A stretch of DNA of 64,000 bases from Thermoanaerobaculia bacterium (GCA_035556715.1 DATMER010000055.1:554-64553); one strand, 5' to 3'. Shown: positions 5,190 through 21,418, numbered from the stretch's first letter. Translations and numbers: made by a program. Notes: generated from the letters alone by a model not told the origin.

Positions 5190-5927
5190 ATGCCGGAAGG
5201 TCGAACTGACTGGCGGCTCTGGCCGAGGATCTTCGACGCCCTGCCTCCCTTGCGAGGACAGACCGTCCTCGACCTGGGGTGCGGGATCGGCGATCAAGCG
5301 GCCGAGCTCGTGGACCGAGGAGCGCGGGTGATCGGCGTCGACATGAATGAGGATCTCCTCCGGGCGGCGCAGGACAGGCAGCTCCCCCAGTTCTGCAATA
5401 TCGAGCTCCGGATGGGTGACCTGCGCGCGTTGCCGGACCTGGGAATCGTGGCGGACGGGATCTGGTCCAGCTTCGCCGCGGCGTATTTCCCGGATCTGCC
5501 CGCGGTGCTCTCCGCGTGGGCGCGGCACCTGAAACCGGGGGGTTGGCTTGCGCTCACGGAAATCGACAACATGTTCGGACACGAGCCACTCAGCGTCCGC
5601 ACCAAAGCCTTGTTCGAGGCCTATGCCCGGGATGCCCTCTCGGCCGGACGGTACGATTTCAACATGGGCCGCAAGCTCCGGAATTACCTCGAGCAGTCCG
5701 GATTCCCGGTCTCGACGATGCTGACGCTCGAGGACCAGGAACTGTCTTTCGACGGTCCGGCCCTTCCGGAGGTGGTCGAATCCTGGCGGGCCCGGTTCGA
5801 CCGCATGAAGCTGCTCCGCGACTTCTGCGGCCCGAGCTTCGAGCAGGTGCGGGAGGAATTCCTGGGCTGCCTGACACGTGCGGACCATCGCTCTGCCGCG
5901 AAGGTGTATTGCTGCATCGCCACCTAG
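5190..5927 (+). CDS. Class I SAM-dependent methyltransferase
   Basis: 245-aa ORF with SAM-binding motif I (VLDLGCGIGDQAAEL) followed by an acidic loop (VIGVDMNEDLL). Confidence 0.9.
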   Translation: MPEGRTDWRLWPRIFDALPPLRGQTVLDLGCGIGDQAAELVDRGARVIGVDMNEDLLRAAQDRQLPQFCNIELRMGDLRALPDLGIVADGIWSSFAAAYFPDLPAVLSAWARHLKPGGWLALTEIDNMFGHEPLSVRTKALFEAYARDALSAGRYDFNMGRKLRNYLEQSGFPVSTMLTLEDQELSFDGPALPEVVESWRARFDRMKLLRDFCGPSFEQVREEFLGCLTRADHRSAAKVYCCIAT

Positions 5928-7545: not shown

Positions 7546-8484
7546 ATGGCGTCCCCGCCCTCCTCCACTCCGGCCATCCGCTGCCGCGGCCTCGTCAAAC
7601 GCTTCGAGGACGTCGTGGCCGTCGCCGGGCTCGACCTCGAGATCGCGCGCGGCGAGTGCTTCGGGCTGCTCGGGCCGAACGGCGCGGGCAAGACCACGAC
7701 CATCGAGATCCTGGAGGGCTTGACCGAGCCGGACGAGGGGGAGGTCGAGCTTCTGGGCGAGACCTGGCAGGGGGACGGCCGCGAGCTCCGCGAGCGGCTC
7801 GGCGTCTCGCTCCAGGAGACGCAGCTCAACGAGAAGCTTACCGTGGCCGAGACGATCCGGCTGTTCCGCTCCTTCTACCGCGAGGGGCGCGACCCCGAGC
7901 AGGTGCTCGCGGCGCTCGCCCTGGAGGAGAAGCGCGACGCCCGCGTCGGCAAGCTCTCGGGCGGGCAGAAGCAGCGCCTGGCCGTGGCCTGCGCCCTGGT
8001 GGGAGACCCCGATCTGCTGTTCCTCGACGAGCCGACCACGGGTCTCGATCCGCAGAGCCGCCTCCAGCTCTGGCAGCAGGTCACCGCCTTCCGCGCGCAG
8101 GGCGGAACCGTGCTGCTGACCACTCATTATATGGACGAGGCCGAGCGCCTCTGCGACCGGGTGGCGATCGTCGATCATGGCCGCGTCATCGCCCTGGGTA
8201 CGCCGACCGAGCTCATCCGCTCGCTGCACGCGGCCGACGTGATCGAGTTCATCTCCGAACCCATGCTCATGGAAGAGGACCTGCGGCTCCTCCCCGGAGT
8301 TTCGGACGTCCACCGGCGCGGCCCCAACCTAGCGCTCGCCGTCACCTCGGTGACTGAAAGCGTTCCCCCTCTGCTCGCCGCGGTCGAGCGGGCCGGGGCG
8401 CGGCTCACCCACCTCTCGACCCACCGCGCCACCCTCGAAGACCTGTTCGTATCCCTCACCGGCCGGGAGCTGCGCGATGCCTGA
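7546..8484 (+). CDS. ABC transporter ATP-binding protein (ABC-2 subfamily)
   Basis: Walker A GLLGPNGAGKTTT, ABC signature LSGGQKQRL and Walker B LLFLDEPTTGLD. Confidence 0.95.
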   Translation: MASPPSSTPAIRCRGLVKRFEDVVAVAGLDLEIARGECFGLLGPNGAGKTTTIEILEGLTEPDEGEVELLGETWQGDGRELRERLGVSLQETQLNEKLTVAETIRLFRSFYREGRDPEQVLAALALEEKRDARVGKLSGGQKQRLAVACALVGDPDLLFLDEPTTGLDPQSRLQLWQQVTAFRAQGGTVLLTTHYMDEAERLCDRVAIVDHGRVIALGTPTELIRSLHAADVIEFISEPMLMEEDLRLLPGVSDVHRRGPNLALAVTSVTESVPPLLAAVERAGARLTHLSTHRATLEDLFVSLTGRELRDA

Positions 8485-9529
8485 GAGCGCGGCCCGCATC
8501 CGCCTGCACTCATTGCGCGAGCTGACCGCGAGCCGCATGCGGGAGTTCCTGCGCGAGCCCGAAGCGCTCTTCTGGGTCTTCTTCTTCCCGGTGCTGCTCG
8601 CCATCGTGCTCGGCCTTGCCTTCCGCGAGAAGCCTCCGGACCGTGCCCCAGTCGGCGTGGTCGCCGGGCCGGGCGCCGAGCCGGCCCTGGCTGCCCTGGC
8701 GCGCTCGCCCGGACTGCTGCCGAAGACGTATGGCGTGGAGGAGGGCCGCGAGGCCCTGCGCACGGGCAAGATCTCGCTCCTGGTCGAGCCCGGCCCGCCG
8801 GTCGTCTTTCGCTTCGACGAGACCCGTCCCGAGTCGCGCATCGCCCGCCTCGAGGCGGACGACGCCCTGCAGCGCGCCGCCGGGAGGGCCGACCCGTTGC
8901 CGGTGCGCGCCGAGCGGGTCACCGAAAAGGGCTCGCGCTACATCGACTTCCTGATCCCGGGCCTGCTGGGAATGAACCTCATGGGCACCGGCATCTGGAG
9001 CCTCGCCTTCTCGATCACCTCCGCGCGCAACCGCCGGGTGCTCAAGCGCCTGGTCGCCACCCCGATGCGGCGCAGCGATTACCTGCTGTCTCAGATCCTG
9101 GGGCGGATGGTCTTCCTGCCGCCCGAGATCCTGCTGCTCGCCGGTTTCGGCTGGCTCGCCTTCGACGTGCCCATGCGCGGGTCGCTGATCCTGTTCTTCG
9201 CCGTCTGCCTTCTCGGGGCCATGTCCTTCTGCGGCCTGGGGCTCCTGATCGCCTCGCGGGTGCGCACCATCGAGGGGGCGAGCGGGCTCGCCAACCTCGT
9301 GATGATGCCGATGTGGCTCCTGTCGGGAGTCTTCTTCTCCGCAGAAAGGTTTCCGGACGCCGTCCAGCCCCTGATCCGCGCCCTGCCCCTGACCGCGCTC
9401 AACGAGGCCCTGCGGATGGTCACGAACGAAGGCCGCGGCCTGGTCGCGATCGCTCCCCAGCTCGCCATCATCACCGCCTGGGGTCTCGTCAGCTTTGCCG
9501 TCGCCCTGAAGATCTTCCGCTGGAAGTAG
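8477..9529 (+). CDS. ABC-2 type transporter permease
   Basis: 350-aa ORF overlapping the ATPase gene by 8 nt. It has multiple TM segments in the C-terminal half (FLIPGLLGMNLMGTGIW, ILLLAGFGWLAF, LILFFAVCLLGAMSFCGLGLLIA). Confidence 0.9.
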   Translation: MPESAARIRLHSLRELTASRMREFLREPEALFWVFFFPVLLAIVLGLAFREKPPDRAPVGVVAGPGAEPALAALARSPGLLPKTYGVEEGREALRTGKISLLVEPGPPVVFRFDETRPESRIARLEADDALQRAAGRADPLPVRAERVTEKGSRYIDFLIPGLLGMNLMGTGIWSLAFSITSARNRRVLKRLVATPMRRSDYLLSQILGRMVFLPPEILLLAGFGWLAFDVPMRGSLILFFAVCLLGAMSFCGLGLLIASRVRTIEGASGLANLVMMPMWLLSGVFFSAERFPDAVQPLIRALPLTALNEALRMVTNEGRGLVAIAPQLAIITAWGLVSFAVALKIFRWK

Positions 9530-9542
9530 GGAGGAAGAGCGT

Positions 9543-9812
9543 ATGGACGCCGATCTCGAGCAGATGTCCCGCGAGCAGCTCATCGACGAAGTCAGGAAGC
9601 TGCGACAGGGCATCCGCGATCATCGTGACAGCAAGGGGCACGAGCTGTGCTGGCATCATCCGGCGCTTTGGGGGCTCCTGCCGGAGAAGACGGATCCGAT
9701 TCCCGTGGTGCCCGACTGGCCTCAGTTCATGCGGGGCTGCATCAAGTACCGCCAGTCGCTCGACGAGCAGGCGCCTGACGCACCGCGATCCGGGGAGCCT
9801 TACCAGAGGTGA
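9543..9812 (+). CDS. Conserved hypothetical small protein
   Basis: 89-aa ORF with protein-like composition (EQLIDEVRKLRQGIRDHRD...CWHHPALWGLLPE). It is coupled to the downstream GNAT gene through a GTGA overlap. Confidence 0.6.
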   Translation: MDADLEQMSREQLIDEVRKLRQGIRDHRDSKGHELCWHHPALWGLLPEKTDPIPVVPDWPQFMRGCIKYRQSLDEQAPDAPRSGEPYQR

Positions 9813-10276
9813 AGATCAGGCGCGCGCAGGAATCCGACTCGGCCGAGCTCACGAGGATCGCCCACGAGTCCAAGAGGCACTGGGGATATCCCGAGCGCTG
9901 GATCGAGATCTGGCGGGACGACCTGACGATTTCGCCCGCCTTCATCGCCGCGAACGAGGTGTACCTGGCCGAGGATGGCAGCGAAGTCCTCGGCTGCTAC
10001 GGCCTCGCCGCCGGGACGCCGAACTGGACGCTCGAGCACTTCTGGGTCCGTCCCTCAGCCATGGGAAAGGGCGTGGGACGGCTCCTGTTCGAGCATGCCC
10101 GGGAGATCGCCTCGGATGCGGGCGCTCACGGCCTCGAGATCGACGCCGATCCCAACGCCGAGCCCTTCTACCTGCGAATGGGCGCTCTCCGGGTCGGCGA
10201 AGTCCAATCCCAGGTCGAGGGCCAGTCGCGGGTCCGCCCTTTGCTGCACCTGCCGCTCGTCAAAGCTTTCCGCTGA
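9809..10276 (+). CDS. GNAT family N-acetyltransferase
   Basis: 155-aa ORF with the acetyl-CoA binding motif region WVRPSAMGKGVGRLLFEHA. GTG start at 9809. Confidence 0.85.
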   Translation: MKIRRAQESDSAELTRIAHESKRHWGYPERWIEIWRDDLTISPAFIAANEVYLAEDGSEVLGCYGLAAGTPNWTLEHFWVRPSAMGKGVGRLLFEHAREIASDAGAHGLEIDADPNAEPFYLRMGALRVGEVQSQVEGQSRVRPLLHLPLVKAFR

Positions 10277-11594
10277 CGACACCCCAGAAGGGGGAAGCCT
10301 CGAAGTCGGCGGCATTCGTGAAGGGGCCGTGCTCCAAATTGTTGTGTACGTCTCCGTCGGCGGCCCAGAACTCCAGTGCGTCGATGGTGGCCCCACAGGT
10401 TTTGAGGTCTCCTCCGGGGGGCCGGTACTTGTGGCTGCAAGAAGGCGACATGGTGCGTAGGGTCACGAATACCTGGCTTCCACCCTTGCGGAGGAAAACA
10501 CCCGCGAAGGCGTTCCCGAAGCTCACGCTGGTGCACCCAGCCGCCCGGACCTGGGCGTTGGTGGTGAACCAGCAGCGCCGCGGGAACTTGCCGGCCTTGG
10601 CTCGGTCGTAAGTCGGAGCCGGCTCGTCAGGCTTCAAGCCCGTCGGAGCCAGGATACAGCTCGCCCCGTCCGTCATCTGGTCGCTGCCGCTGTGCCCAAA
10701 CATGATGGCCTCGGCGAGCGGGGTCTGCCCCTCCCCGGAGGCTTTCTCGATCTCTCCAAGCGGATCAGCCTTGATCTGCTTGGTGCCGGGATAGAAGCGC
10801 TTGGCCGAGACGAGAGCCTGGTTCCCCGCGCTCGGATGGAAGTTGATGCGCAGGCTGCTCCCGCTCGTCGCCTTGAGGTTGGAGAGGTCGAAGGTATCCC
10901 CGATCTGGAGGTACTTCTCGTAGTGCGTCTGAAAGTCGGCGGGCGGCGTCGCGTAATCTGCCGTCTTCATGGCGAGGGGCTTGATGCCAACCCAGTTCAG
11001 AGGGTTGGACTGGACCTTCCCGGGCAACTGGCCCAGGCGGTCTTCCTCGGAATTGACCGTGGCCGTGTTGTCCTCGATCTTCCAGCGGGCCAGTTGCGCG
11101 GAGGCCTGGGAAAGAGGGGGCGCCGGGCAGTCCTGGAGCACGGCCTCGGCCGCCCGTTCCGCCTCCCGCTCCGAGGCATCACCCGGCTGCGTCACCTCGA
11201 GCCGGGCCTGCAGGGACGGCGGCCGGCCCCCCTGCTGGACCACGTGAGCCATCTCGTGGGCCAGCAGATGCAGGCCCGAACGGGTATGCGGCTGGTACTG
11301 CCCGGCTCCGAAGACCACGTGCGGACCCACGGTGTAGGCCCGGGCGCTGACCGCCCGGGCGGACTCCGCGGCCGTGGTATCCGCGTGGATACGCACCTGG
11401 CTGAAGTCGTGGCCGAAGCGTGACTCCAGAAGAGTCCGCGGCCCGGTGACGACCGGCTGGCCCGGGGACCGCAGGACCTGCTGGACGAGAGGGGACGACA
11501 GCCGCGAAAGCGGATTCGCGGCCTGCCGCGCCGGGCTCGCCGGCGAACGGGTATGCGCCTTGGGCGATGGACCTGGCCGGTCGGACGTGGACAT
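10260..11594 (-). CDS. DUF4157-domain (HExxH) toxin-like protein with uncharacterised C-terminal domain
   Basis: DUF4157 hallmark ESRFGHDFSQVRIHAD...AYTVGPHVVFGAGQY...LLAHEMAHVVQQ. I chose the start at ATG 11594 (MSTSDRP), because the longer ORF to 11741 would run through the divergent neighbour's start region. A C-terminal region of about 300 aa has no motif I recognise. Confidence 0.85.
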   Translation of the reverse strand: MSTSDRPGPSPKAHTRSPASPARQAANPLSRLSSPLVQQVLRSPGQPVVTGPRTLLESRFGHDFSQVRIHADTTAAESARAVSARAYTVGPHVVFGAGQYQPHTRSGLHLLAHEMAHVVQQGGRPPSLQARLEVTQPGDASEREAERAAEAVLQDCPAPPLSQASAQLARWKIEDNTATVNSEEDRLGQLPGKVQSNPLNWVGIKPLAMKTADYATPPADFQTHYEKYLQIGDTFDLSNLKATSGSSLRINFHPSAGNQALVSAKRFYPGTKQIKADPLGEIEKASGEGQTPLAEAIMFGHSGSDQMTDGASCILAPTGLKPDEPAPTYDRAKAGKFPRRCWFTTNAQVRAAGCTSVSFGNAFAGVFLRKGGSQVFVTLRTMSPSCSHKYRPPGGDLKTCGATIDALEFWAADGDVHNNLEHGPFTNAADFEASPFWGVVSGKL

Positions 11595-11670
11595 GGAGAG
11601 CGTTTTCCCCCGGGGAACAGGTTCCGGATACACTGGAGAGTGCGCACGCGCATCTTTCCATTTCAAAAAG

Positions 11671-12186
11671 ATGGCCGACCCTCCCCGCCTTCCCCACTTG
11701 CCCCGAGCCCTGTACATCATCGGGCTGGCCGGCGTCGGCAAGAACCACGTCGGCGACCTGATCGGCCGGCTCTCCGGCTGTCATGTCTACCATGCCGACG
11801 AGGACCTTCCAGCGGACATGCGCGACGCTGTCGACAGGAACGAGCTCTGGACGGAAGAGCAGGTGGACGGATTCTACTCCATCATCCGCAGGCGAGCCCT
11901 GGAGCTTCTCGAGGTGCATCCCAGGATCGTCATCACCCAGGCGACCTACTTCCAGAAATACCGCGACCTCATCCGCGAGGCGATCCCGGACATCGAGCTC
12001 CTCTGGGTCGTTGCCGGTCAGGACGTCAATCTCCGAAGGCTCCGGGAGAGAGGCGACTACGTGTCCGTTGAGTATTTCGAGAAGACCCGGCTCTACTTCG
12101 AAACGCCGCCGGAACCGACGAAGACGCTCCTCAACGACGGCGACGACTCCGACATCATCCGGCAATTGGCCGCCCTTTACGGCTAG
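11671..12186 (+). CDS. P-loop kinase-like protein (atypical Walker A)
   Basis: ATG at 11671 (MADPPRL). Walker A-like IIGLAGVGKN ends in GKN rather than GKS/T. Overall it looks like a small-molecule/nucleotide kinase. The upstream part of the 11374 ORF is off-frame-like junk. Confidence 0.7.
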   Translation: MADPPRLPHLPRALYIIGLAGVGKNHVGDLIGRLSGCHVYHADEDLPADMRDAVDRNELWTEEQVDGFYSIIRRRALELLEVHPRIVITQATYFQKYRDLIREAIPDIELLWVVAGQDVNLRRLRERGDYVSVEYFEKTRLYFETPPEPTKTLLNDGDDSDIIRQLAALYG

Positions 12187-12341: not shown

Positions 12342-12638
12342 ATGGGCTGCCTTGACCTGCTTTTCCTTCCCCTGGAGGCCTTCGTCTGGCACCCGGAGAG
12401 GATTTTTTTGATGGCAGGAGTCCTCTGCCTGCTCTTCCTGCTCCTTCACTGGCTGCGGCGGCGCGCCTGGCCCGTCCTCTCGGTCGCGATCGCCTGGGGG
12501 CTCTGGGCTCCCTGGGAGGCGTACTGCAAGGCAGGGGGATTCAACATCCGGATCGACCTTTTCCTGATCGGGCCCGTCCTGCTGATCGCCACGATCGGAG
12601 GACTGATCGTGGGGCTCACTCCGCGCTCCCCGGATTAG
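12342..12638 (+). CDS. Small integral membrane protein
   Basis: GGGAGGAGG lies upstream of the ATG at 12342. The protein is about 98 aa with 3-4 hydrophobic helices (IFLMAGVLCLLFLLLHWL, WPVLSVAIAWGLWAPW, LFLIGPVLLIATIGGLIVGL). It ends 25 nt before the S8 peptidase gene. Confidence 0.6.
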   Translation: MGCLDLLFLPLEAFVWHPERIFLMAGVLCLLFLLLHWLRRRAWPVLSVAIAWGLWAPWEAYCKAGGFNIRIDLFLIGPVLLIATIGGLIVGLTPRSPD

Positions 12639-12663
12639 CTATAGAATTCAAGGTAACAGCGAG

Positions 12664-14667
12664 GTGACAATGGCGAGCAACCCCGAGAACAGGCCCGAGA
12701 GCAAGCCCAAGCTCGACCGCAAGCTGATGGAGCAGCTCATGTTCGGCACCGGCCGCGTGCGCCGCTTCACGCAGGATTCCCCCGTGCTGCCGGACGTCTG
12801 GCTGGAGTATATGAAGGAGCCGGGCGAGCGTCTCACCGGCAAGCCCGAGAAGCCCGAGCCGTTCCCGTCGGTGAAGCTGCTGCTCACACCCTTCCGGGAG
12901 AACTACGCCGGCGACATCCGGCGCGAGCTGCGGGAACGGCTGGAGAAAGAGAAGAAAGAGGGCAAAGAGGTGCCGCGCGTCATCTACAACCAGTCGACCG
13001 TAGCGGCCACGCTCTGCTTCGAGGACCTCGTCCGGGTGGTCCTTCCCATGACCTCCTTCTGGGAGCGCCTCGACAAGCAGTGGAAGATCGAAGCCCTGGA
13101 CTCTGAGACCGCCCATAAATACCTTGCCGAAGCGGTCAAGGACCCGGAGCATCCGCCGCTCCTTCCCACCGGGGAGAAGGAGGGCGAGATGAAGCGTCCG
13201 CCTCCGGCCCTCCTCTGGATGATCCGCGTCGTCGGAGCGCTGGCCCTCCTCCATCGAAGAGAGCCGCTGCCGAAGAGGTTCTTTGGGCCGGAGGGCGTGG
13301 CCGGGGTCACCACCGGGGACTGGAAGGTCCTGGTCAAGGCCGTGGCCGACCTGATCCGCGGCGTCGAGCCCGGCAGCAAGAAAGGCCGCATCTATTCGGT
13401 CAGCCTGAACCGCGAAGCCTCTCCGACGGTCTCCCGCTCGATGCTTGCGGTCAAGGCCGATGCCGCCCGGCGCCTGTTCGAAATCTCGTGCAGCGAGCTG
13501 GCCTGGGCCGTCATCGACAGCGGGATCGATGCCAGCCACCCCGCATTCCGCCTGCGGAAGAAAGAGGATGGCAAAGAGGTGCCGTGCAGCCAGACACCTT
13601 TCGAGAACGACAAAGGCGAGCCGGAGAACTGCACCCGCGTCGTCGAGACCTACGACTTCACGCAGATCGAGCGGCTCCTCGATCCCGACACGCCCGATCT
13701 GCCCGAGCACCTGACCGAGAAGCTCAAGGGGAAGTCAAAGAAGGCGCAGGACCTGCGGGAACAGATCGCAACTGTCAATGAGGCGCTGGCCTCCGGCCGC
13801 TCCATCGATTGGAAGCTGATCGCTCCGCTGCTGCGCATCCCGCAGGACGAGGGGAAGGACAAGTACATCCCACCGGGCCACGATCACGGGACCCACGTTG
13901 CCGGCATCCTCGCCGGCAAGTGGCTGCACGCCGAATGCGAAGAGTTGGAGGAGGACCTCCTCGGCGTCTGTCCCGACATCCGTCTCTATGACCTGCGCGT
14001 ACTCGACGCGGACGGGCGCGGCGACGAGTTTGCCGTCATGGCCGCGCTGCAGTTCATCCGCCATCTCAACTCGACCAACGACTACGTGGCCGTGCACGGC
14101 GTGAACATGAGTCTTTCGATCCCGCACGAAGTCTCGAATTATGCCTGCGGCCGCACGCCGGTCTGCGAGGAGTGCGAGCGCGTGGTGGGCTCGGGCGTGG
14201 TAGTGGTGGCCGCGGCCGGGAACCAGGGCTATCGGAAGTCGCTCACTGCCGAGGGGGTCACGACCGAGTCCTACAGCGACATCAGCATTACCGATCCGGG
14301 CAATGCCGAGCTCGTCATCACCGTCGGGGCCACGCACCGCTACCGGCCGCACACCTACGGGGTGAGCTACTTCTCCAGCCGGGGTCCGACGGGCGACGGC
14401 CGTCTCAAGCCCGATCTGGTGGCGCCGGGAGAAAAGATCACGGCGCCGTTGCCCGGTGACACGTTCGGCCTGAAGGACGGCACGAGCATGGCCGCTCCGC
14501 ATGTGAGCGGCGTGGCGGCGCTGCTCATGGCCCGGTACAACGAGCTGGTCGGCCGGCCCGCCCGCATCAAGCAGATCCTCTGCTCGACGGCCACGGACCT
14601 CGGCCGCGAAAAGTATTTCCAGGGAGCGGGGATGCTCGACGCCCTGCGCGCCCTGCAGTCCGTCTGA
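12664..14667 (+). CDS. Cytoplasmic S8 (subtilisin-like) serine peptidase with long N-terminal extension
   Basis: Catalytic triad motifs occur in D-H-S order: AVIDSGIDASHPAF, HGTHVAGILAG and GTSMAAPHVSGVAALL, plus AAAGNQG. No signal peptide is seen. The start is GTG 12664 or ATG 12670. Confidence 0.92.
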   Translation: MTMASNPENRPESKPKLDRKLMEQLMFGTGRVRRFTQDSPVLPDVWLEYMKEPGERLTGKPEKPEPFPSVKLLLTPFRENYAGDIRRELRERLEKEKKEGKEVPRVIYNQSTVAATLCFEDLVRVVLPMTSFWERLDKQWKIEALDSETAHKYLAEAVKDPEHPPLLPTGEKEGEMKRPPPALLWMIRVVGALALLHRREPLPKRFFGPEGVAGVTTGDWKVLVKAVADLIRGVEPGSKKGRIYSVSLNREASPTVSRSMLAVKADAARRLFEISCSELAWAVIDSGIDASHPAFRLRKKEDGKEVPCSQTPFENDKGEPENCTRVVETYDFTQIERLLDPDTPDLPEHLTEKLKGKSKKAQDLREQIATVNEALASGRSIDWKLIAPLLRIPQDEGKDKYIPPGHDHGTHVAGILAGKWLHAECEELEEDLLGVCPDIRLYDLRVLDADGRGDEFAVMAALQFIRHLNSTNDYVAVHGVNMSLSIPHEVSNYACGRTPVCEECERVVGSGVVVVAAAGNQGYRKSLTAEGVTTESYSDISITDPGNAELVITVGATHRYRPHTYGVSYFSSRGPTGDGRLKPDLVAPGEKITAPLPGDTFGLKDGTSMAAPHVSGVAALLMARYNELVGRPARIKQILCSTATDLGREKYFQGAGMLDALRALQSV

Positions 14668-14679
14668 AAGGAGACCGCG

Positions 14680-15825
14680 ATGCTGATCCTCGAAGCGCTC
14701 CGCGCGAAATACGGAGACGCCCTCCTCCTCCACTTCGGCACGAAAGAAAAACCGCAGCTCATCGTGATCGACGGCGGCCCGCCCGGCGTCTACAACGACG
14801 CGCTGAAGCCGCGGCTCGAAGAGATCCGCAAGCAGCGCAAGCTTGCCGAGAACAAGCCGCTGGACATCGAGCTGATGATGGTCAGCCACATCGACGAGGA
14901 CCACATCGCCGGCGTCCTGCAGCTCGTCCGCAAGATGAAGGACCTCAAGGAGTCGAAGCAGCCTGTCCCCTGGAACATCCGCCGCTTCTGGCACAACTCC
15001 TTCGACGACCTCCTCGGCAACGACGATGTGTCGGTCGCCTCGTCGGCGTCGGTGATGAGCCCGGCCTCGATCGGCGACATGCTGGGGACGAAGGGCTCCC
15101 TGATCCTCGCCAGCGTCGGCCAGGGGCGCGAGCTCCGCAAGCTGCTCGACGCCTTGCAGCTAGCTGGCAACCCCCCGTTCGATGGCCTGGTGAGGGCCGG
15201 GAAGAAGGCGATCACCCTCGGCAACCTGAAGCTCACGGTCGTGGCCCCGCTCGAAGAGAACCTCCACGAGCTGCAGGAGGAGTGGGACAAGGAAGTAAAA
15301 GCCATCCTGAAGAAAGAGAAGAACAAGGAGGCCCTTGCGAAGGCCGCGGCCTACGTGGACGAGTCGGTCGCCAACCTCTCCAGCATCGTGGTCCTCGTTG
15401 AAGGAGATGGCAAGCGCATCCTCCTCACCGGCGACGGCCGCGGCGACCACACGCTCCAGGGCCTCAAGAAAGCCAAGCTCCTGAAGGATGGCCAGCTCAA
15501 GGTGGACGTACTCAAGATGCCCCATCACGGCAGCGTCCGGAACATCGACGAGGACTACTTCGAGACGATCCAGGCCGATCACTACGTCATGTCGGCGGAT
15601 GGCAAGTTCGACAACCCCGATCTCGCCACGTTGCAGATGCTCTCCAAGATGCGCCCGGACGACGACTTCACGATCCACCTGACCTACCCCACGGACAAGT
15701 TCAACGTGCCGGCAATCGGCAACGAGATCGCCAAGTTTTTCGAGAAGGAGAAAGCCGCCGGCCGGAAGTACAAGGTCGAGACGCGAAAGCCGGACGACCT
15801 CTCGTTCCAGCTCAAGCTCGCCTGA
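14680..15825 (+). CDS. MBL-fold metallo-hydrolase (ComEC/Rec2-like subtype)
   Basis: AAGGAG lies 7 nt upstream, and the gene starts 12 nt after the S8 stop. Motifs are MVSHIDEDHIAG (HxDxDH in place of HxHxDH), LLTGDG and LKMPHHGS. Confidence 0.88.
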   Translation: MLILEALRAKYGDALLLHFGTKEKPQLIVIDGGPPGVYNDALKPRLEEIRKQRKLAENKPLDIELMMVSHIDEDHIAGVLQLVRKMKDLKESKQPVPWNIRRFWHNSFDDLLGNDDVSVASSASVMSPASIGDMLGTKGSLILASVGQGRELRKLLDALQLAGNPPFDGLVRAGKKAITLGNLKLTVVAPLEENLHELQEEWDKEVKAILKKEKNKEALAKAAAYVDESVANLSSIVVLVEGDGKRILLTGDGRGDHTLQGLKKAKLLKDGQLKVDVLKMPHHGSVRNIDEDYFETIQADHYVMSADGKFDNPDLATLQMLSKMRPDDDFTIHLTYPTDKFNVPAIGNEIAKFFEKEKAAGRKYKVETRKPDDLSFQLKLA

Positions 15826-15872
15826 AGGGGGACGGGGGCCGCCCTCACGTCGACACTGAGGTTAGGCGAAGA

Positions 15873-16256
15873 ATGAGGAACAGTAGTTCTATGAAGATGA
15901 ACAGATTGATACCAATGCTGCCGGTCAAGAGCATGCCAGGAAGTGTGGACTTTTACTGCGGGATGCTGGGTTTTGAGGTCGAGAAGAGAAACGACGATTG
16001 GGGCTGGGCAATGCTTCGCTTCGACGAGTGCCGCCTGATGGTGGATCAATCGATCAATGCGCACCCGGCCAAGCCTTGCGACTCGATCCTCTATCTGTAC
16101 CCGGATAATGTCATCGAGTACCACGAGCAAGTCAGGAGGAACGGTTTGGCTGTGCCGGAGCTGACCGTCACCTTCTACGGCCTCACAGAGTTTCGAATAA
16201 GCGATCCGGATGGAAACCGATTATGGATCGGACAAAGCACGTCGCCGGAGGTCTAG
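15873..16256 (+). CDS. VOC/glyoxalase-bleomycin resistance family protein
   Basis: The 127-aa ORF reads IPMLPVKSMPGSVDFYCGMLGFEV... and ends with FRISDPDGNRLWI, a typical VOC fold signature. The start could instead be ATG 15891 or 15897. Confidence 0.8.
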   Translation: MRNSSSMKMNRLIPMLPVKSMPGSVDFYCGMLGFEVEKRNDDWGWAMLRFDECRLMVDQSINAHPAKPCDSILYLYPDNVIEYHEQVRRNGLAVPELTVTFYGLTEFRISDPDGNRLWIGQSTSPEV

Positions 16257-16360
16257 CTATGCGCAGCAATATCCAGGGCCTCCAGCGAACACCTGGGCTC
16301 GCGCCAGGCGCACGCTGAGGCCCCAAGTGTTACTGCGCAGCCGCGATTGACGAGGTTTTC

Positions 16361-17080
16361 ATGGAAGTAGGCCAGGATGACCTTCGCCGCCGCTATCGGG
16401 ATCTCGAAACCTTCGAGCTTCTTCACCTCCATCGCAGAGGTGGGCTTACAGGCTCGGCAATCGCGGTACTCAAAGAAGTCCTCGACTCACGAGAGCCTGG
16501 ATGGGAGCATCGCGACGATCGATGGCTCCGATCGGACTTCGAGAGCTTCCTCCGCGAGGCGGACACGTTGAGTATTCCGGACGAATTCGGTAATCTCGTG
16601 GAGCCCCTTTTTCTCCCTGCCGGGCAGGCACCGGACGAGATGGAGATCCGGGCCGCTGAAGAGCGGATAGGCGCGCCGCTTCCGCAAGGCTACAAGCTGT
16701 TTCTCCGGGTGCTGGGACCGGGCTGTTGGTGCCGTGCGAACGAGATCTCAGCTCCGGCCGACGTGTTCGTGTTCGATGAATCCACTTGGGAAATGAAGGG
16801 ATTCGTTGCTATTGTGGAGAATGTCCAAGGTGTTGGCGACTATTTGGCGTTCAATCCTGCTGATCCGCAAGTCGAAGGCGATAGACCTGTCTACTACTGC
16901 GCTCATGATCCCTATGGCTATGCCAGAGTGGCGGACTCCTTCGAGATCTGGGCCAGGGAATGTGCTGCCGCCGCACGGCAGGAGCAGGACTTCTACCAGC
17001 AGTTTGACGAGGTCGTTTCTGCCAAGTCGAGGGAGCTCGAGGCTAAGGAGCCAAAGAGATGGTGGCATTTCTGGCGCTGA
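16361..17080 (+). CDS. SMI1/KNR4 family protein (immunity-protein-like)
   Basis: Central segment EERIGAPLPQGYKLFLRVLGPG...FDESTWEMKGFVAI...YLAFNP matches the SMI1/KNR4 pattern. Codon usage is visibly AT-richer. Confidence 0.8.
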   Translation: MEVGQDDLRRRYRDLETFELLHLHRRGGLTGSAIAVLKEVLDSREPGWEHRDDRWLRSDFESFLREADTLSIPDEFGNLVEPLFLPAGQAPDEMEIRAAEERIGAPLPQGYKLFLRVLGPGCWCRANEISAPADVFVFDESTWEMKGFVAIVENVQGVGDYLAFNPADPQVEGDRPVYYCAHDPYGYARVADSFEIWARECAAAARQEQDFYQQFDEVVSAKSRELEAKEPKRWWHFWR

Positions 17081-17127
17081 AGCGGAAACAGAGACTCTGC
17101 GGTTGACGCAGGTATAGGGGAACTGAA

Positions 17128-17769
17128 ATGGCAGACTTTCCCACCCTCCAGGATGAGTATCAGATGCTCATAGGTGAGTTACGCCAGAACCGAGAGATTC
17201 AACTGCAGTCGCTCCTCTCCACCCCTATATGGATCGCCCTCTTCTTCGGCTTGCTTTCAGCGGGAGGGCCAAGTGCCTTGCAGACACTACCTGCGCTCGT
17301 ATTAGTTCCCGTTCCGCTGGTGTACATGAGCCTGTTGCTCGTGCTGAACCGCCGCAGCTCCGCGGACCAGATCCTTGCATATTTCCGCACTGCGTTCGAA
17401 CAGAAGCTTGCGCGGGACATCGGCTGGAACTTTCTTCTCCCCGAGTTCCGCAAACAGGTACGCCTACTTCGAGGCGCCAACAAGAAGCTCACGTACAGAG
17501 TACCGCAACGACTCGACTTCATTACGATGATGTGGGCAGTCAACTTTGTAATAGCGCTGAGCTGCTTGGGAAGCTATGGTGCCCTTCTGCCTGGACTCGG
17601 AGTCAAGTTTTGGTCTATTGCGGTTCTTCTGATGCTTGGATACCTTATCGCTATCGTCTGGATCTTCCGCCAGGCAGATGCGAAAGCCTACTTCGTCGAG
17701 GCATGGCAACGTGTACTTCTTGAGCGGGCGGCCGGATCGGCCAACCCCGCCGCCCAGCAACAACTGTAG
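17128..17769 (+). CDS. Hypothetical membrane protein
   Basis: 213-aa ORF with about 4 hydrophobic helices (IWIALFFGLLSAGG, LVLVPVPLVYMSLLLVL, MMWAVNFVIALSCLGSYGALL, SIAVLLMLGYLIAIVWIF). It lies in the lower-GC stretch. Confidence 0.65.
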   Translation: MADFPTLQDEYQMLIGELRQNREIQLQSLLSTPIWIALFFGLLSAGGPSALQTLPALVLVPVPLVYMSLLLVLNRRSSADQILAYFRTAFEQKLARDIGWNFLLPEFRKQVRLLRGANKKLTYRVPQRLDFITMMWAVNFVIALSCLGSYGALLPGLGVKFWSIAVLLMLGYLIAIVWIFRQADAKAYFVEAWQRVLLERAAGSANPAAQQQL

Positions 17770-17869
17770 GAGGGCCGCGGTGCTCAGAGGTGTCGATCCG
17801 GCCCCTGACTCGCGGGGTCCTGAGGAGTGCGATAGCATAAAGCCTGTCGCGACCCTTTCAGGAGGCCTC

Positions 17870-20608
17870 ATGAAGCGTCTCGCCCTGCTCGCTCTCCTCG
17901 CACTCCTCGCACTCCCGGCGGCCGGGCTGGAGCCGTACCTCGTCAAGGACATCAACCCGGTCGCGAGCCCCGTGGGCTCGGACCCGTCGTCCCCAGTCAC
18001 CTTCGGCGGCGCCGTCCTCTTCTTCGCCAACGACGGGATCTCCGGCCGGGAGCTGTGGCGCAGCGACGGCACGGCCGCGGGCACCTTCCCGCTCAGCGAG
18101 GGCGCCGGGCTCCCGGAGCCGCAGCCGTACCTCGTGACAGAGCGGCTGTACTTCTTCCTGTCTGGCAATCCCATCGGCGGCTCTCCGAGCCTGTGGGTCA
18201 GCGACGGTACGCCCGCCGGCACCTTCCGCCTCACCGATCCCGATGTGTGGGTCGTCGGAAGGGCGCGGGCCTGGGTCGCCAGCCAGGGCGTCCTCTACTT
18301 CACGGCCCGCGACCCGGAGCACGGCGCGGAGCTCTGGCGAACCGACGGCACCCCCGCGGGGACCCGCCTCGTGGCTGACTTCCGGCCGGGACCCGAGGGC
18401 TCGGAGATCAACGAGCTGACGGCGTACCGGGGCCGGGCCTGGTTCGGCGCCGACGACGGACAGCATGGCGGCGCCCTCTGGCGCACCGACGGCAACGCGG
18501 CCGGCACGGTCCTGGTGGTAGATCCGATCCCGTCTTCGGCATCCCATGGCGCTCCGGAGTACATCCGGGTCGTGGGCAAGCGCCTCACCTTCTTCGCGCT
18601 GCCCCCGGGCCGGGGCCGGAGCCGGCAGCTCTGGGCCGGCGACGGGAACGCCAATGGGACCCGGCCGATCACGAACCTGCGCAAGGGGAGCGTCGTCCGG
18701 GAACAGCCCGTCGTCGACGGGAACCGGCTCTACTTCGTGGTGGAGCACAGCGGGAACCAGCAGCTCTGGATCAGCAACGGCACGGGGCGCGGCACGCGGG
18801 CGCTGGCCAGCTTCGAGCAGAATTCCGAGTTCCTGGGGCTCCCCGCGCCACAGGGCCTCCGCGGCCTGTTCGTGTTCCGGGCGTTCGACCGTGCCCATGG
18901 CACCGAGCCCTGGGTCACGGACGGCACCCCGCAGGGCACCCGCCTGCTGCGGGACGTCTGCCCGGGCGAGTGCTCCAGCGTACCGTTCCCGCAGAGCGTG
19001 TTCGCCGGCCGGTTCTACTTCACCGCCGAGGAGGCTGACCACGGCCGCAAGCTCTGGTCCACGGACGGCACCCCGGAAGGCACCCGCCAGGTGAGCAACA
19101 TCGACTTCGAGAATCCCTTCGCGTTCTTCGTCGTAGGCGGCCGGCTCCTCTTCGTGGCCCGGGTCCCCGAGACCGGCTGGGAGATCTGGAGAACCGACGG
19201 GACCGCGCAGGGGACCGTCCCGATCACCGATTTCGAGGATCGGTTCATCTGGGAGGACGGGTTCCACGGGGCCGTCCTAGGCGGGGTGCTCCTGTTCCGC
19301 GGCGAGGACAGTCAGCACGGGGCCGAGCTCTGGCGAACCGACGGCACGGCTGCCGGGACCAGGTTCGTCGAGGACATCAACCAGATCGATGTCGGCGGCT
19401 CCTTCCCCATGGGCCTGCGGCCGCTGGGAGACGAAGTCGTCTTCGCCGCGAACGACGGCGTCCCGGGCTTGTGGAGGAGCGACGGCACGGCCGCCGGGAC
19501 CGTGCGGTTCCGGACGTTCGAACCGGATGAGCTGGACGGCGCGCATCCGAACGGAGCGTTCGCGGAGGCCGGCGGCAAGCTCTTCTACTTCGCCTACGAC
19601 AACACGGAGACCCGCTTCACGCCCTGGCGGACGGACGGCACGGAGGCGGGTACCTTCCGGTTGACCGAGGCGGGCTCGCCGGGCTGCTGCAATACGCGGG
19701 AGATGGAGGCCGTGGGGAGCCTGGTGTTCTTCGACCTCCGGGACGAGGAGCACGGGCTCGAGCCGTGGGTGAGCAACGGCAGCCGGGAGGGGACGCGGCT
19801 GCTCCTGGACGTCATGCCCGGACCGGCCGACTCGGGGCCCCGGGAGCTGACCGCTTTCCAGGGGAAGCTCTACTTCTCGGCCGCCGCTCCCGGCATCGGC
19901 CTCGAGCTCTGGCGGAGCGACGGCACCGAGGCGGGCACGGTGCCCCTGGACCTCCAACCGGGCCCCATCAGCTCGGCGCCGGTCCTCCTCACCGTCCACG
20001 CCGACCGTCTCTGGTTCTTCGCGGACGACGGCGTGCACGGCCGGGAGCTGTGGAGCAGTGACGGCATTGAGACCGGATCGAGGATGGAGGTCGATCTCGC
20101 GCCCGGGTCCGCGGACTCCGGAGCCCTGTTCATGGTCTCGCTCGGCGACCAGCTCATCATCTCCATCCACGGCAGCGGCCTCTGGGTGACGGACGGCACG
20201 CCCGCGGGGACCCGGCGCATCAACGACCGGGAGGTCGAAGCCTTCACCTACGGTGACATCTGGACCATCTTCCAGGGCAGGCTCTACTACGTCGCCACCG
20301 ACGGCACCATCTGGGTGACGGACGGCACCGAGGCCGGAACCGGGAAGCTCCTCGACCGCGACGGCCACGAGATCTTTGCCCCACAGAAGTTCACAGTCCT
20401 GGGCGATCGTCTCATCTTCACCGCCCAGAACATCTTCGGCCTGACGCTGTGGGAATCCGACGGCACGCCGGCGGGCACGTTCCCTGTCGAGCCGGCCAAC
20501 ATCAACCCCCCGCAGGAGCTGATGGGCGCCGGGGACCGGGTCTTCTTCCCGTCCTACGATCCTGCCACCGGCTGGGAGCTCTGGGCGGTGGCGCCGGAGT
20601 CACCGTAG
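17870..20608 (+). CDS. Secreted ELWxxDGT-repeat protein
   Basis: AGGAGG lies upstream of the ATG at 17870, followed by the signal peptide MKRLALLALLALLALPAAG. I counted about 18 repeats of the (E)LW(R/S)(S/T)DGTxxGT motif by eye. Confidence 0.92.
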   Translation: MKRLALLALLALLALPAAGLEPYLVKDINPVASPVGSDPSSPVTFGGAVLFFANDGISGRELWRSDGTAAGTFPLSEGAGLPEPQPYLVTERLYFFLSGNPIGGSPSLWVSDGTPAGTFRLTDPDVWVVGRARAWVASQGVLYFTARDPEHGAELWRTDGTPAGTRLVADFRPGPEGSEINELTAYRGRAWFGADDGQHGGALWRTDGNAAGTVLVVDPIPSSASHGAPEYIRVVGKRLTFFALPPGRGRSRQLWAGDGNANGTRPITNLRKGSVVREQPVVDGNRLYFVVEHSGNQQLWISNGTGRGTRALASFEQNSEFLGLPAPQGLRGLFVFRAFDRAHGTEPWVTDGTPQGTRLLRDVCPGECSSVPFPQSVFAGRFYFTAEEADHGRKLWSTDGTPEGTRQVSNIDFENPFAFFVVGGRLLFVARVPETGWEIWRTDGTAQGTVPITDFEDRFIWEDGFHGAVLGGVLLFRGEDSQHGAELWRTDGTAAGTRFVEDINQIDVGGSFPMGLRPLGDEVVFAANDGVPGLWRSDGTAAGTVRFRTFEPDELDGAHPNGAFAEAGGKLFYFAYDNTETRFTPWRTDGTEAGTFRLTEAGSPGCCNTREMEAVGSLVFFDLRDEEHGLEPWVSNGSREGTRLLLDVMPGPADSGPRELTAFQGKLYFSAAAPGIGLELWRSDGTEAGTVPLDLQPGPISSAPVLLTVHADRLWFFADDGVHGRELWSSDGIETGSRMEVDLAPGSADSGALFMVSLGDQLIISIHGSGLWVTDGTPAGTRRINDREVEAFTYGDIWTIFQGRLYYVATDGTIWVTDGTEAGTGKLLDRDGHEIFAPQKFTVLGDRLIFTAQNIFGLTLWESDGTPAGTFPVEPANINPPQELMGAGDRVFFPSYDPATGWELWAVAPESP

Positions 20609-20629
20609 GCCCTGCATAGGAGGTTCTCC

Positions 20630-21418
20630 ATGGCTGCGGACCCTATCGATCAGATTCTCCAGGAGATGGACGAAATCGTCTCCTGGTGCCTCGCGAACGG
20701 CAGCCGCGCCGGATATTTCGCGGCGCTCTACCGGCGGGTGACGCGGACGGTGCGATCCCGCATCGGCACCGGCTACTTCGACGACGACCAGCGCATGGAG
20801 GTGCTCGACGTCACTTTCGCCACGCGCTACCTGACCGCGTTCCGGCAGTGGCAGGCGGGCGATCCCACGATCTCTGCGTGCTGGAAGGTGGCCTTCGACG
20901 CCGTGCCGGACCCGACCCTGATCATCCTCCAGAACCTGCTCGTGGGCATGAACGCCCATATCGACTACGACCTCGGGATCGCCGCCGCCCAGGTGGCCGG
21001 CACTATGGAGGGGCTGGAGAGCCTCCATGATGACTTCGACAAGATCAACGCCCTGCTCGGCTGCCTGGTGCCCACCGTCTTCACCGAGCTGGGCGATCTC
21101 TCACCCCTGATCCATCTGGCCGAGGAGATCGGCGAGCCGGATGAGGAGAAGCTGGTGGACGATCTGATGAAGGTGGCGCGGGACTTCTCCTGGCTGCTCG
21201 CCAACGAGCTGGTGATCCTCCGCGATGCTCCCGACCTCCAGCAGAAGCTTCTGGTCATGAAGGACAAGGAAGCGAGCTGGCTCGGCACGAAGATCGTCCA
21301 CCCCGGCGGCTCGCTCGAGAAGATCTTCCACGTGATCTGGCTCGCCGAGTCCAAGGAAGTGGTCAAGAACATCGAGGTGCTGGCCGCGCCGGAGATGTTG
21401 CCGGCGAGCTGCGGGTGA
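20630..21418 (+). CDS. Conserved hypothetical protein (DUF5995-like)
   Basis: AGGAGG RBS. The 262-aa helical protein has AGYFAALYRRVT...LLVGMNAHIDYDLGIA, which I recall as DUF5995-like. The family call is tentative. Confidence 0.7.
   Translation: MAADPIDQILQEMDEIVSWCLANGSRAGYFAALYRRVTRTVRSRIGTGYFDDDQRMEVLDVTFATRYLTAFRQWQAGDPTISACWKVAFDAVPDPTLIILQNLLVGMNAHIDYDLGIAAAQVAGTMEGLESLHDDFDKINALLGCLVPTVFTELGDLSPLIHLAEEIGEPDEEKLVDDLMKVARDFSWLLANELVILRDAPDLQQKLLVMKDKEASWLGTKIVHPGGSLEKIFHVIWLAESKEVVKNIEVLAAPEMLPASCG

Follow-up and report, generated by a model that had tools for sequence, protein, structure and literature searches.

We analysed a 64,000-nucleotide (nt) stretch of DNA from a Thermoanaerobaculia bacterium (GCA_035556715.1 DATMER010000055.1:554-64553; the window) and describe within it a pair of adjacent genes on the + strand. 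The first encodes a cytoplasmic S8 (subtilisin-family) serine peptidase (12670..14667; 665 amino acids (aa) from its ATG), and the second encodes a ComEC-type hydrolase with the metallo-beta-lactamase (MBL) fold (14680..15825; 381 aa). The pair is most likely a self-contained two-gene protease–effector module belonging to the subtilisin-associated clade of gated MBL pro-nucleases, with the MBL protein as the predicted effector. We are highly confident that it is a member of the S8-associated protease–MBL module family. We also lean towards a mechanism in which the S8 protease cleaves both loops of the MBL protein, frees a DNase and aborts infection, based on homology and positional correspondence with the trypsin- and caspase-associated sister clades in which such gating has been tested.

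Protease-gated MBLs are known from several defence systems. HamM of Hachiman and Avs1a of AVAST are pro-nucleases in which two disordered insertions block the active site until they are cleaved (Tuck et al., Science 2025, PMC12799240). The partner trypsin-like protease cuts after I118 and I218 in HamM and after I134 and I234 in Avs1a (EpiAvs1a), and in the canu system a caspase performs the cleavage (PMC12799240). VcMBL is cut at I133/S134 and I232/S233, and once cleaved it acts as a dsDNA nuclease that depends on Zn2+ (Evans et al., bioRxiv 2025, PMC12642450). Protease-associated MBLs split into trypsin-, caspase- and subtilisin/S8-associated clades (PMC12799240, PMC12642450), the last appearing as 'Clade 3' in one study (PMC12642450) and as a 'subtilase' track in fig. 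S2 of the other (PMC12799240). The window locus, in which an S8 gene shares an operon with an insertion-bearing ComEC-like MBL gene, fits this clade in every testable respect. The kind of module is already known and its S8 clade already catalogued; what this analysis adds is the precise anatomy, an N-terminal protease domain of no known fold, an insertion of ~90 aa between the catalytic residues Asp283 and His406, the lack of a separate sensor gene and the existence of phospholipase-bearing variants.

By analogy with the sister clades, the MBL protein would be made as an inactive zymogen of a ComEC-type metal-dependent DNase, with two insertions beside the metal site (aa 111–140 and ~192–231) keeping DNA out. 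The cytoplasmic S8 protease would be held inactive by, or would sense through, its N-terminal 250-aa domain, the Asp283–His406 insertion or both. Upon a trigger, most likely phage infection, S8 would cut the MBL loops, and the freed nuclease would degrade DNA so that the infected cell is killed or arrested (abortive infection). It is by analogy that we infer four elements of this scheme, namely S8 cleavage of the MBL protein, DNase activity, the trigger and the defence phenotype.

A preliminary description of the locus had proposed a protease-gated effector or abortive-infection module that matched no named defence system and lay closest to ietAS. Its central idea holds up through homology and anatomy, with a mechanism demonstrated for the trypsin and caspase sister clades that may carry over to this one. 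A third gene, a foreign origin and the ietAS link, which it had also put forward, did not survive; the right comparison is with protease–MBL pro-nuclease modules, whose subtilisin clade is already in the literature.

A conserved S8–MBL gene pair

Both proteins belong to large families. Of the candidates scored for the S8 protein, 4549 are homologues at E<=1e-5, and the top 120 are 61–85% identical over their full length. MBL homologues likewise number in the thousands; the 120 best matches per protein span 61–87% full-length identity, and many of them lie on shared contigs. To follow the pairing across relatives we used three sets of loci: metagenomic and genomic contexts, twelve loci from GTDB carrying S8 relatives 36–70% identical to the window protein, and four plasmid loci. 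The GTDB scan was swamped by generic subtilases because the back-translated motifs are universal S8 motifs, and the useful loci from it are L006–L017.

In every examined locus with a relative of this S8 protein, the S8 gene is followed directly, in the same orientation, by an MBL gene. Adjacency in other genomes had been set beforehand as a test of the idea, and it holds in more than 20 independent related loci from at least six phyla, down to 36–37% identity. The hosts are Acidobacteriota (Thermoanaerobaculia), Myxococcota, Planctomycetota (including Kuenenia), Gemmatimonadota, Alpha- and Betaproteobacteria and Actinomycetota (Thermoleophilia), and the pair also resides on conjugative plasmids. 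Among plasmid records with an MBL relative, 59 of 81 are conjugative, and many are from Rhizobiales. The distance between the two genes ranges from -4 to 78 nt in 16 related loci. The genes flanking the pair differ in almost every locus; the pair alone is constant, and we found no other conserved partner gene across the related loci examined. We found no phage-borne copies of the pair, a phage collection yielding one partial match.

The two proteins have also diverged in parallel. Pairwise-identity matrices for S8 and MBL across 17 loci correlate at r = 0.90, a value that none of 2000 Mantel permutations reached. In the window, the junction reads TGA-AAGGAGACCGCG-ATG, with a 12-nt spacer that holds an AAGGAG ribosome-binding site immediately 3' of the S8 stop codon (TGAAAGGAGACCGCGATG; 14668..14673), an arrangement suited to translational coupling and one that the preliminary description had read correctly. 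Strict adjacency, translational coupling and parallel divergence together suggest a direct partnership between S8 and MBL. The ATG at 12670 is the likelier S8 start because it is preceded by GAGG; a GTG at 12664 would give a protein of 667 aa. A promoter scan returned zero promoter-like sites, and terminator-like sites occurred at about chance level.

Two relatives of the pair carry features of their own. In L097 (2742–3887), gene calling broke the MBL gene into products of 153 and 223 aa, although tblastn aligns all 381 residues as a single piece at 86% identity; a stop codon within the frame, an error in sequencing or an artefact of gene calling may explain the split. On the Methylorubrum extorquens CM4 plasmid pCMU01 (L087, 2564–5810), genes for an adenylate/guanylate cyclase, an E2-domain protein and a TIR-domain protein lie directly upstream of the S8–MBL pair. 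With that adjoining set and the ImmA/IrrE, integrase and IS21 genes nearby, this stretch of the conjugative plasmid resembles a defence island. TIR, PIN and Phd genes also lie close to the pair in other loci.

The MBL protein and its candidate gating loops

Profile searches place the MBL protein among defence-associated relatives. Its best PADLOC match is LmuA (PDLC03854; 4.9e-58, residues 2–360 over profile positions 3–330 of 345), followed by RTasMBL (4.8e-35) and Avs1a (5.1e-32), with PDC-M48B also matching. The NCBIfam Avs1a model matches at 2.7e-44 and 151.5 bits, under its equivalog cut-off of 420, and the NCBIfam ComEC and 6A-MBL models match weakly. When searched against the PDB, the MBL family profile found only ComEC MBL domains. 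An AlphaFold2 model (mean predicted local distance difference test score (pLDDT) 83.7, predicted template modelling score (pTM) 0.86) has as its best Foldseek match the ComEC beta-lactamase-like domain 9ic4 (E 1.1e-11, template modelling (TM) score 0.69 on the 266-residue target). The MBL protein therefore groups with ComEC and the defence MBLs and not with metabolic hydrolases, as the preliminary description had anticipated.

ComEC/Rec2 is the best relative of the MBL protein in both structure and sequence, and the two share the HxDxDH and HHGS motifs. Unlike ComEC, the window protein is soluble (maximum Kyte–Doolittle hydropathy over 19 residues, 1.37) and has no membrane channel domain. It scores 30.2 bits against the ComEC model TIGR00361, whose cut-off is 190, and it is longer than the 9ic4 domain by ~115 residues, which lie in insertions.

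The metal site is intact. Motif 2 reads H70-I-D-E-D-H75 (14887..14904), an HxDxDH variant whose ligands H70, D72, D74 and H75 never vary in either the close or the wide MBL family; D31, N106, D252, H282 and H283 are likewise invariant. The ComEC-type C-terminal metal-ligand motif, LKMPHHGS (aa 278–285; 15511..15534), contains the invariant H282 and H283 and aligns to 'vlkvgHHGS' of ComEC. Both motifs had been reported beforehand and read exactly so at aa 70–75 and 278–285.

Two insertions distinguish the protein, and each is a candidate gate. Loop 1 (aa 111–140, LLGNDDVSVASSASVMSPASIGDMLGTKGS; 15010..15099) begins just past the W104-H105-N106 motif and is predicted to be disordered (pLDDT 47–52 in the AlphaFold2 model), making it a candidate both for the gate and for the protease target. 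Insertion 2 (aa 192–231; 15253..15372), a candidate second gate, is modelled as a helical hairpin (pLDDT 68–71) that sits just before the strand leading to the GDGRGD motif and carries a Lys-rich, variable tip (aa 205–222, EVKAILKKEKNKEALAKA). The position of loop 1 matches the published cut sites I118, I133 and I134, and that of insertion 2, with its tip at ~205–222, matches the published second cut sites I218, I232 and I234.

We next asked how these segments vary in a wide comparison of 18 S8-linked MBLs from related loci, 30–86% identical to the window protein. In loop 1, identity to the window MBL was 0.28 and in the insertion-2 tip it was 0.26, compared with 0.45–0.53 in the core. The loop-1 segment ranged from 86 to 126 residues, and the insertion-2 tip contained 16% gaps. 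The insertions thus vary in length and sequence while the metal ligands stay invariant. An annotated Avs1a from a Bacillus cereus plasmid (L089) has insertions of its own at the same two places, the one at insertion 2 being longer. The close MBL family keeps A129-S130-[I/L]131-G132 in loop 1, whereas the wide family does not.

The subtilase and its N-terminal domain

The catalytic domain of the S8 protein is recognised by Pfam (Peptidase_S8, PF00082; E 1.1e-42, residues ~280–656) and by the PADLOC 'subtilase' model PDLC03014 (2.3e-42). The catalytic residues span 13516..14487 and comprise D283 (13516–13518), H406 (13885–13887), the oxyanion residue N518 (14221–14223) and S606 (14485–14487), all four invariant in an alignment of 38 family members. 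We take the protein to lack a signal peptide because its N-terminus is not hydrophobic (maximum Kyte–Doolittle value over 15 residues, -0.05), in agreement with the preliminary description; neither S8 nor MBL has a transmembrane segment or a signal peptide.

Also as described earlier, about 280 residues without a known motif precede the catalytic Asp, and Pfam finds nothing N-terminal to its Peptidase_S8 match. The first 250 of these residues (12670..13419) form a domain that AlphaFold2 models with good scores (pLDDT 86.6, pTM 0.85) as a beta-alpha-beta-beta-alpha unit followed by a helical bundle, and that is about as conserved as the catalytic domain in the family alignment. Its fold has no significant Foldseek match in the PDB (best E 0.31) or in BFVD (best E 0.85), an hmmsearch against PDB sequences gave nothing below E ~1, and Pfam, I9 included, gave no match. 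These searches found nothing to identify the domain as an I9 propeptide, a known sensor or a viral mimic, and the earlier expectation that it would not prove to be a propeptide or secretion signal agrees with these results. A search of residues 1–280 against 1.84 billion representative proteins returned 658 clusters at E<=1e-3. Among the matches listed, the alignment begins near the protein N-terminus and full-length proteins measure ~600–850 aa. Peptidase_S8 was the sole Pfam domain in 10 of 10 sampled carriers, so the N-terminal domain is a dedicated, uncharacterised module of this subtilase family, one not recognisable as a propeptide.

The protease carries a second unusual segment between Asp283 and His406. 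In subtilisin BPN', D32 and H64 are separated by 32 residues. The corresponding distance in the window protein is 123 residues, which implies an insertion of ~90 aa rather than the ~140 aa first estimated, and Pfam agrees, aligning 375 S8 residues over 282 profile positions. The insertion (aa ~294–400, about 90–107 aa; 13549..13869) has no Pfam match and holds the blocks TRVVETYDFTQI and GRSIDWKLIAPLLRIP, which are conserved in the family alignment. In the trypsin clade, sensing or autoinhibition falls to STAND, HamA or Lamassu parts; here the insertion and the N-terminal domain are the only candidates for such a role, and the N-terminal domain in particular is a candidate sensor or autoinhibitory domain. 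Elsewhere in the protein, cysteines C274, C434, C493 and C499, which include the motif A-C-G-R-T-P-V-C, are invariant in the S8 family. Four such cysteines are unusual for a cytoplasmic subtilase and may form a metal site or a redox switch.

Intracellular subtilisins (ISPs) are cytoplasmic proteases with an N-terminal extension able to regulate activity. The window protein resembles ISPs and I9-propeptide subtilases in its cytoplasmic location and potentially regulatory extension. It differs in the size of its N-terminal domain (250 aa), for which Pfam, Foldseek and a PDB sequence search detected no relative of the I9 or ISP type, and it differs from secreted I9 subtilases in having neither a hydrophobic N-terminus nor a Pfam I9 match.

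Set beside the trypsin–MBL pairs (Hachiman HamMAB; AVAST Avs1a/Avs1b, VcAvs2 and AtAvs4; Lamassu; DRT UG9; ABC-3C), the window pair shares a homologous MBL with two equivalent insertions and an adjacent, co-evolving protease. That protease, however, is of the S8 rather than the trypsin-like type and is not fused to a STAND, HamA or LmuA sensor, and its gene precedes the MBL gene, whereas the MBL of the trypsin systems is 'typically upstream'. The S8 partner and the sub-threshold Avs1a score both separate the pair from AVAST type 1, and no STAND NTPase occurs among the window genes scanned (476 to 25435). For the Lamassu ATPase LmuB, of the SMC family, we found no SMC/LmuB match in those genes or in the related loci. 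Canu (CanABC) is similar in that its protease gene stands alone upstream of an MBL nuclease gene and no sensor of a known family is attached, but its protease is a caspase with an Ig-like domain and it includes CanB, whereas the window has an S8 protease with an unrelated N-terminal domain and no third conserved gene. IetAS likewise features a cytoplasmic S8 peptidase in a defence context. The window protein, however, matches the PADLOC IetS model (1.6e-09) through the catalytic core only, reaches 21.3 bits against the NCBIfam IteS cut-off of 900, and is partnered by an MBL protein with no IetA ATPase at the pair.

Gene surroundings, phospholipase variants and alternative readings

The window holds the plain two-gene form of the module, and some relatives carry a third hydrolase. 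A patatin-like phospholipase gene lies directly upstream of S8 in six loci: L005 (8864–9988; Pfam 1.1e-20), L007 (6359–7507), L013 (8617–9900), L017 (8672–9838), L092 (4857–5990) and L095 (4855–5988). In L006 a patatin-like gene (7947–9065) sits ~0.9 kb upstream. On a Miltoncostaea oceani plasmid (L086), a gene for a Tle1-like DUF2235 phospholipase (9130–10437; 9.2e-61) starts 7 nt after the MBL gene. The three-gene arrangements are thus patatin–S8–MBL and, in L086, S8–MBL–lipase. An alpha/beta-hydrolase can also be a protease-activated zymogen (Evans et al., PMC12642450), which makes it plausible, by analogy, that one S8 protease licenses two effectors. We offer, as a tentative extension, that the pair may be a fully self-contained defence system in which the S8 N-terminal domain acts as a new infection sensor or autoinhibitory switch, and in whose three-gene variants S8 may license both the MBL DNase and the patatin- or Tle1-like phospholipase zymogens.

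Two genes upstream of the pair were considered as further components and set aside. A 98-aa open reading frame (ORF; 12342..12638, + strand) has strong hydrophobic peaks and a ribosome-binding site, GGAGGAGG, and ends 31 nt before the S8 ATG; the 25 nt given in the preliminary description is true for the GTG start. That description counted this small membrane protein as part of the module and so began the module at 12342, which is merely the start of the small ORF. It adjoins the pair but is no conserved component: tblastn found no match in any of 24 related loci, and in L002–L004 just 4 nt separate the end of an upstream kinase gene from the start of S8, where the window has a 480-nt spacer holding the ORF. 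The corresponding P-loop kinase gene in the window (11683–12186) was rejected as a partner in turn, being present only in these closest relatives and absent elsewhere, including L096, whose S8 is 82% identical.

The Lys-richness that had been noted in both proteins is real, with K/(K+R) of 0.71 in MBL and 0.47 in S8 compared with 0.11–0.22 in most neighbours, but the foreign origin drawn from it is not borne out. GC content at third codon positions (GC3) is 0.875 in S8 and 0.908 in MBL, within the 0.83–0.93 of host genes, and we therefore rejected a recent horizontal origin. Lys-richness looks instead like a family trait, since aligned homologues also hold Lys-rich stretches, and the many Lys codons of the MBL gene probably account for its low overall GC.

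Downstream of the pair, a block at 15826–20629 encodes a glyoxalase/bleomycin-resistance-like protein (15873–16256), a SUKH-1/SMI1_KNR4 protein (16361–17080), a membrane protein (17128–17769) and a large repeat protein. In L096, a DUF5995 gene lies 10 nt after MBL; its 76% identical window counterpart (20630–21418) is found 4.8 kb further on, so either the window gained the block or L096 lost it. GC3 of its first three genes is 0.64–0.71 compared with 0.83–0.93 elsewhere, and on this atypical composition the block is probably a recently acquired islet. The repeat protein (17636/17936–20608) has ELW..DGT..GT-type repeats and no Pfam match, and relatives of it lie immediately upstream of the pair in L090 (353–5933); they may represent a lineage-specific expanded family or a loose association. 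Upstream, on the - strand, 10260–11741 encodes a protein of 493 aa whose eCIS_core/DUF4157 domain (Pfam 4.9e-30) is typical of toxin-like cargo. With DUF4157/eCIS_core upstream and SUKH-1 downstream, the region has a polymorphic-toxin/immunity flavour. A class I methyltransferase gene (5190–5927) matches PADLOC mad2 (5.7e-20) through a generic methyltransferase domain and is probably not defensive, because no other MADS components are near.

Several observations weigh against a gated anti-phage module. Housekeeping genes make up most of the neighbourhood in the window (for ABC transporters, a methyltransferase, TenA and an alpha/beta-hydrolase). PADLOC and NCBIfam models found no recognised defence system or island among the window genes scanned, the only defence-model matches apart from the pair being the generic methyltransferase domain and a TAP-like hydrolase. 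No sensor gene (SMC, STAND, reverse transcriptase or helicase) lies within ~10 kb of the pair in the window, nor in the related loci. We identified no conserved cut-site residue in either loop across the wide MBL family. Phosphorylcholine esterases (Pce/CbpE) are the second-best fold matches of the MBL model, so a non-DNA substrate is possible on fold alone. Finally, PMC12799240 and PMC12642450 catalogue the S8 clade in phylogenies and report no experiments on S8–MBL pairs.

The same wiring, with S8 licensing MBL but under a different trigger, could serve a protease–nuclease cell-death or stress module that is not directed at phage and acts, for instance, in conflict between kin, in addiction to a plasmid or island, or in the developmental lysis of soil bacteria. 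The polymorphic-toxin and immunity-type neighbours in the window, where PADLOC detects no system near the pair, fit this idea, as do the many matches on conjugative Rhizobiales plasmids and the toxin–antitoxin pairs near the pair in L002. We nevertheless consider it unlikely: every experimentally tested relative of this MBL type is anti-phage, the pCMU01 pair adjoins the cyclase–E2–TIR set, and no link with genes for secretion or delivery emerges across loci.

The loops raise a separate question, namely whether S8 acts on the MBL protein at all. The two could be parallel effectors, or S8 could itself be an effector that degrades host or phage proteins, with the MBL insertions serving substrate binding or oligomerisation. 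The failure to find a conserved cut site in the loops across the wide family and the fairly ordered modelling of insertion 2, a helical hairpin at pLDDT ~70 rather than a flexible linker, would suit such an arrangement, and the phospholipase variants show that several hydrolases can belong to one module. The strict adjacency of the genes, their translational coupling and the parallel divergence of the proteins argue the other way, however, and the insertions coincide in position with the proven cleavage loops of homologues, which leaves this arrangement decidedly unlikely.

A metabolic or housekeeping role would cast S8 as a processing protease (for example, a leader peptidase for ribosomally synthesised and post-translationally modified peptides) and MBL as a phosphodiesterase or esterase whose substrate is a small molecule or lies in the cell envelope. 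Lanthipeptide dehydratase and C39-ABC transporter genes 3–8 kb upstream in L002–L004 point in this direction, alongside the esterase fold matches and housekeeping neighbourhood noted above. Yet the flanks change nearly everywhere while the pair stays constant, both proteins lack signal peptides and transmembrane segments, and the sequence relatives of the MBL protein are ComEC and defence MBLs rather than metabolic ones; we regard such a role as improbable. A decaying remnant of an effector pair that has lost its sensor gene, as the lack of an adjacent sensor might suggest, is very improbable, given intact reading frames, host-like GC3, invariant catalytic residues, listed homologues 61–87% identical, conservation that already implies purifying selection and a sensor-less form that recurs across phyla.

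That death effectors are licensed by proteolysis is a common principle of bacterial immunity that has come to be appreciated only recently. The locus is a compact representative of its S8 branch, consisting of two genes with intact catalytic sites, two mapped candidate gating loops and no separate sensor. The family is large: homologues number in the thousands in soil Acidobacteriota and several other phyla, and conjugative Rhizobiales plasmids also carry copies. Should the N-terminal domain of S8 prove to be a sensor, it would represent a new sensor class, and if protease licensing extends to the phospholipase variants, a single protease would have two kinds of effector under its control. For annotation, pairs now recorded as 'S8 family peptidase' next to a 'hypothetical' or 'MBL fold' protein gain a specific predicted role.

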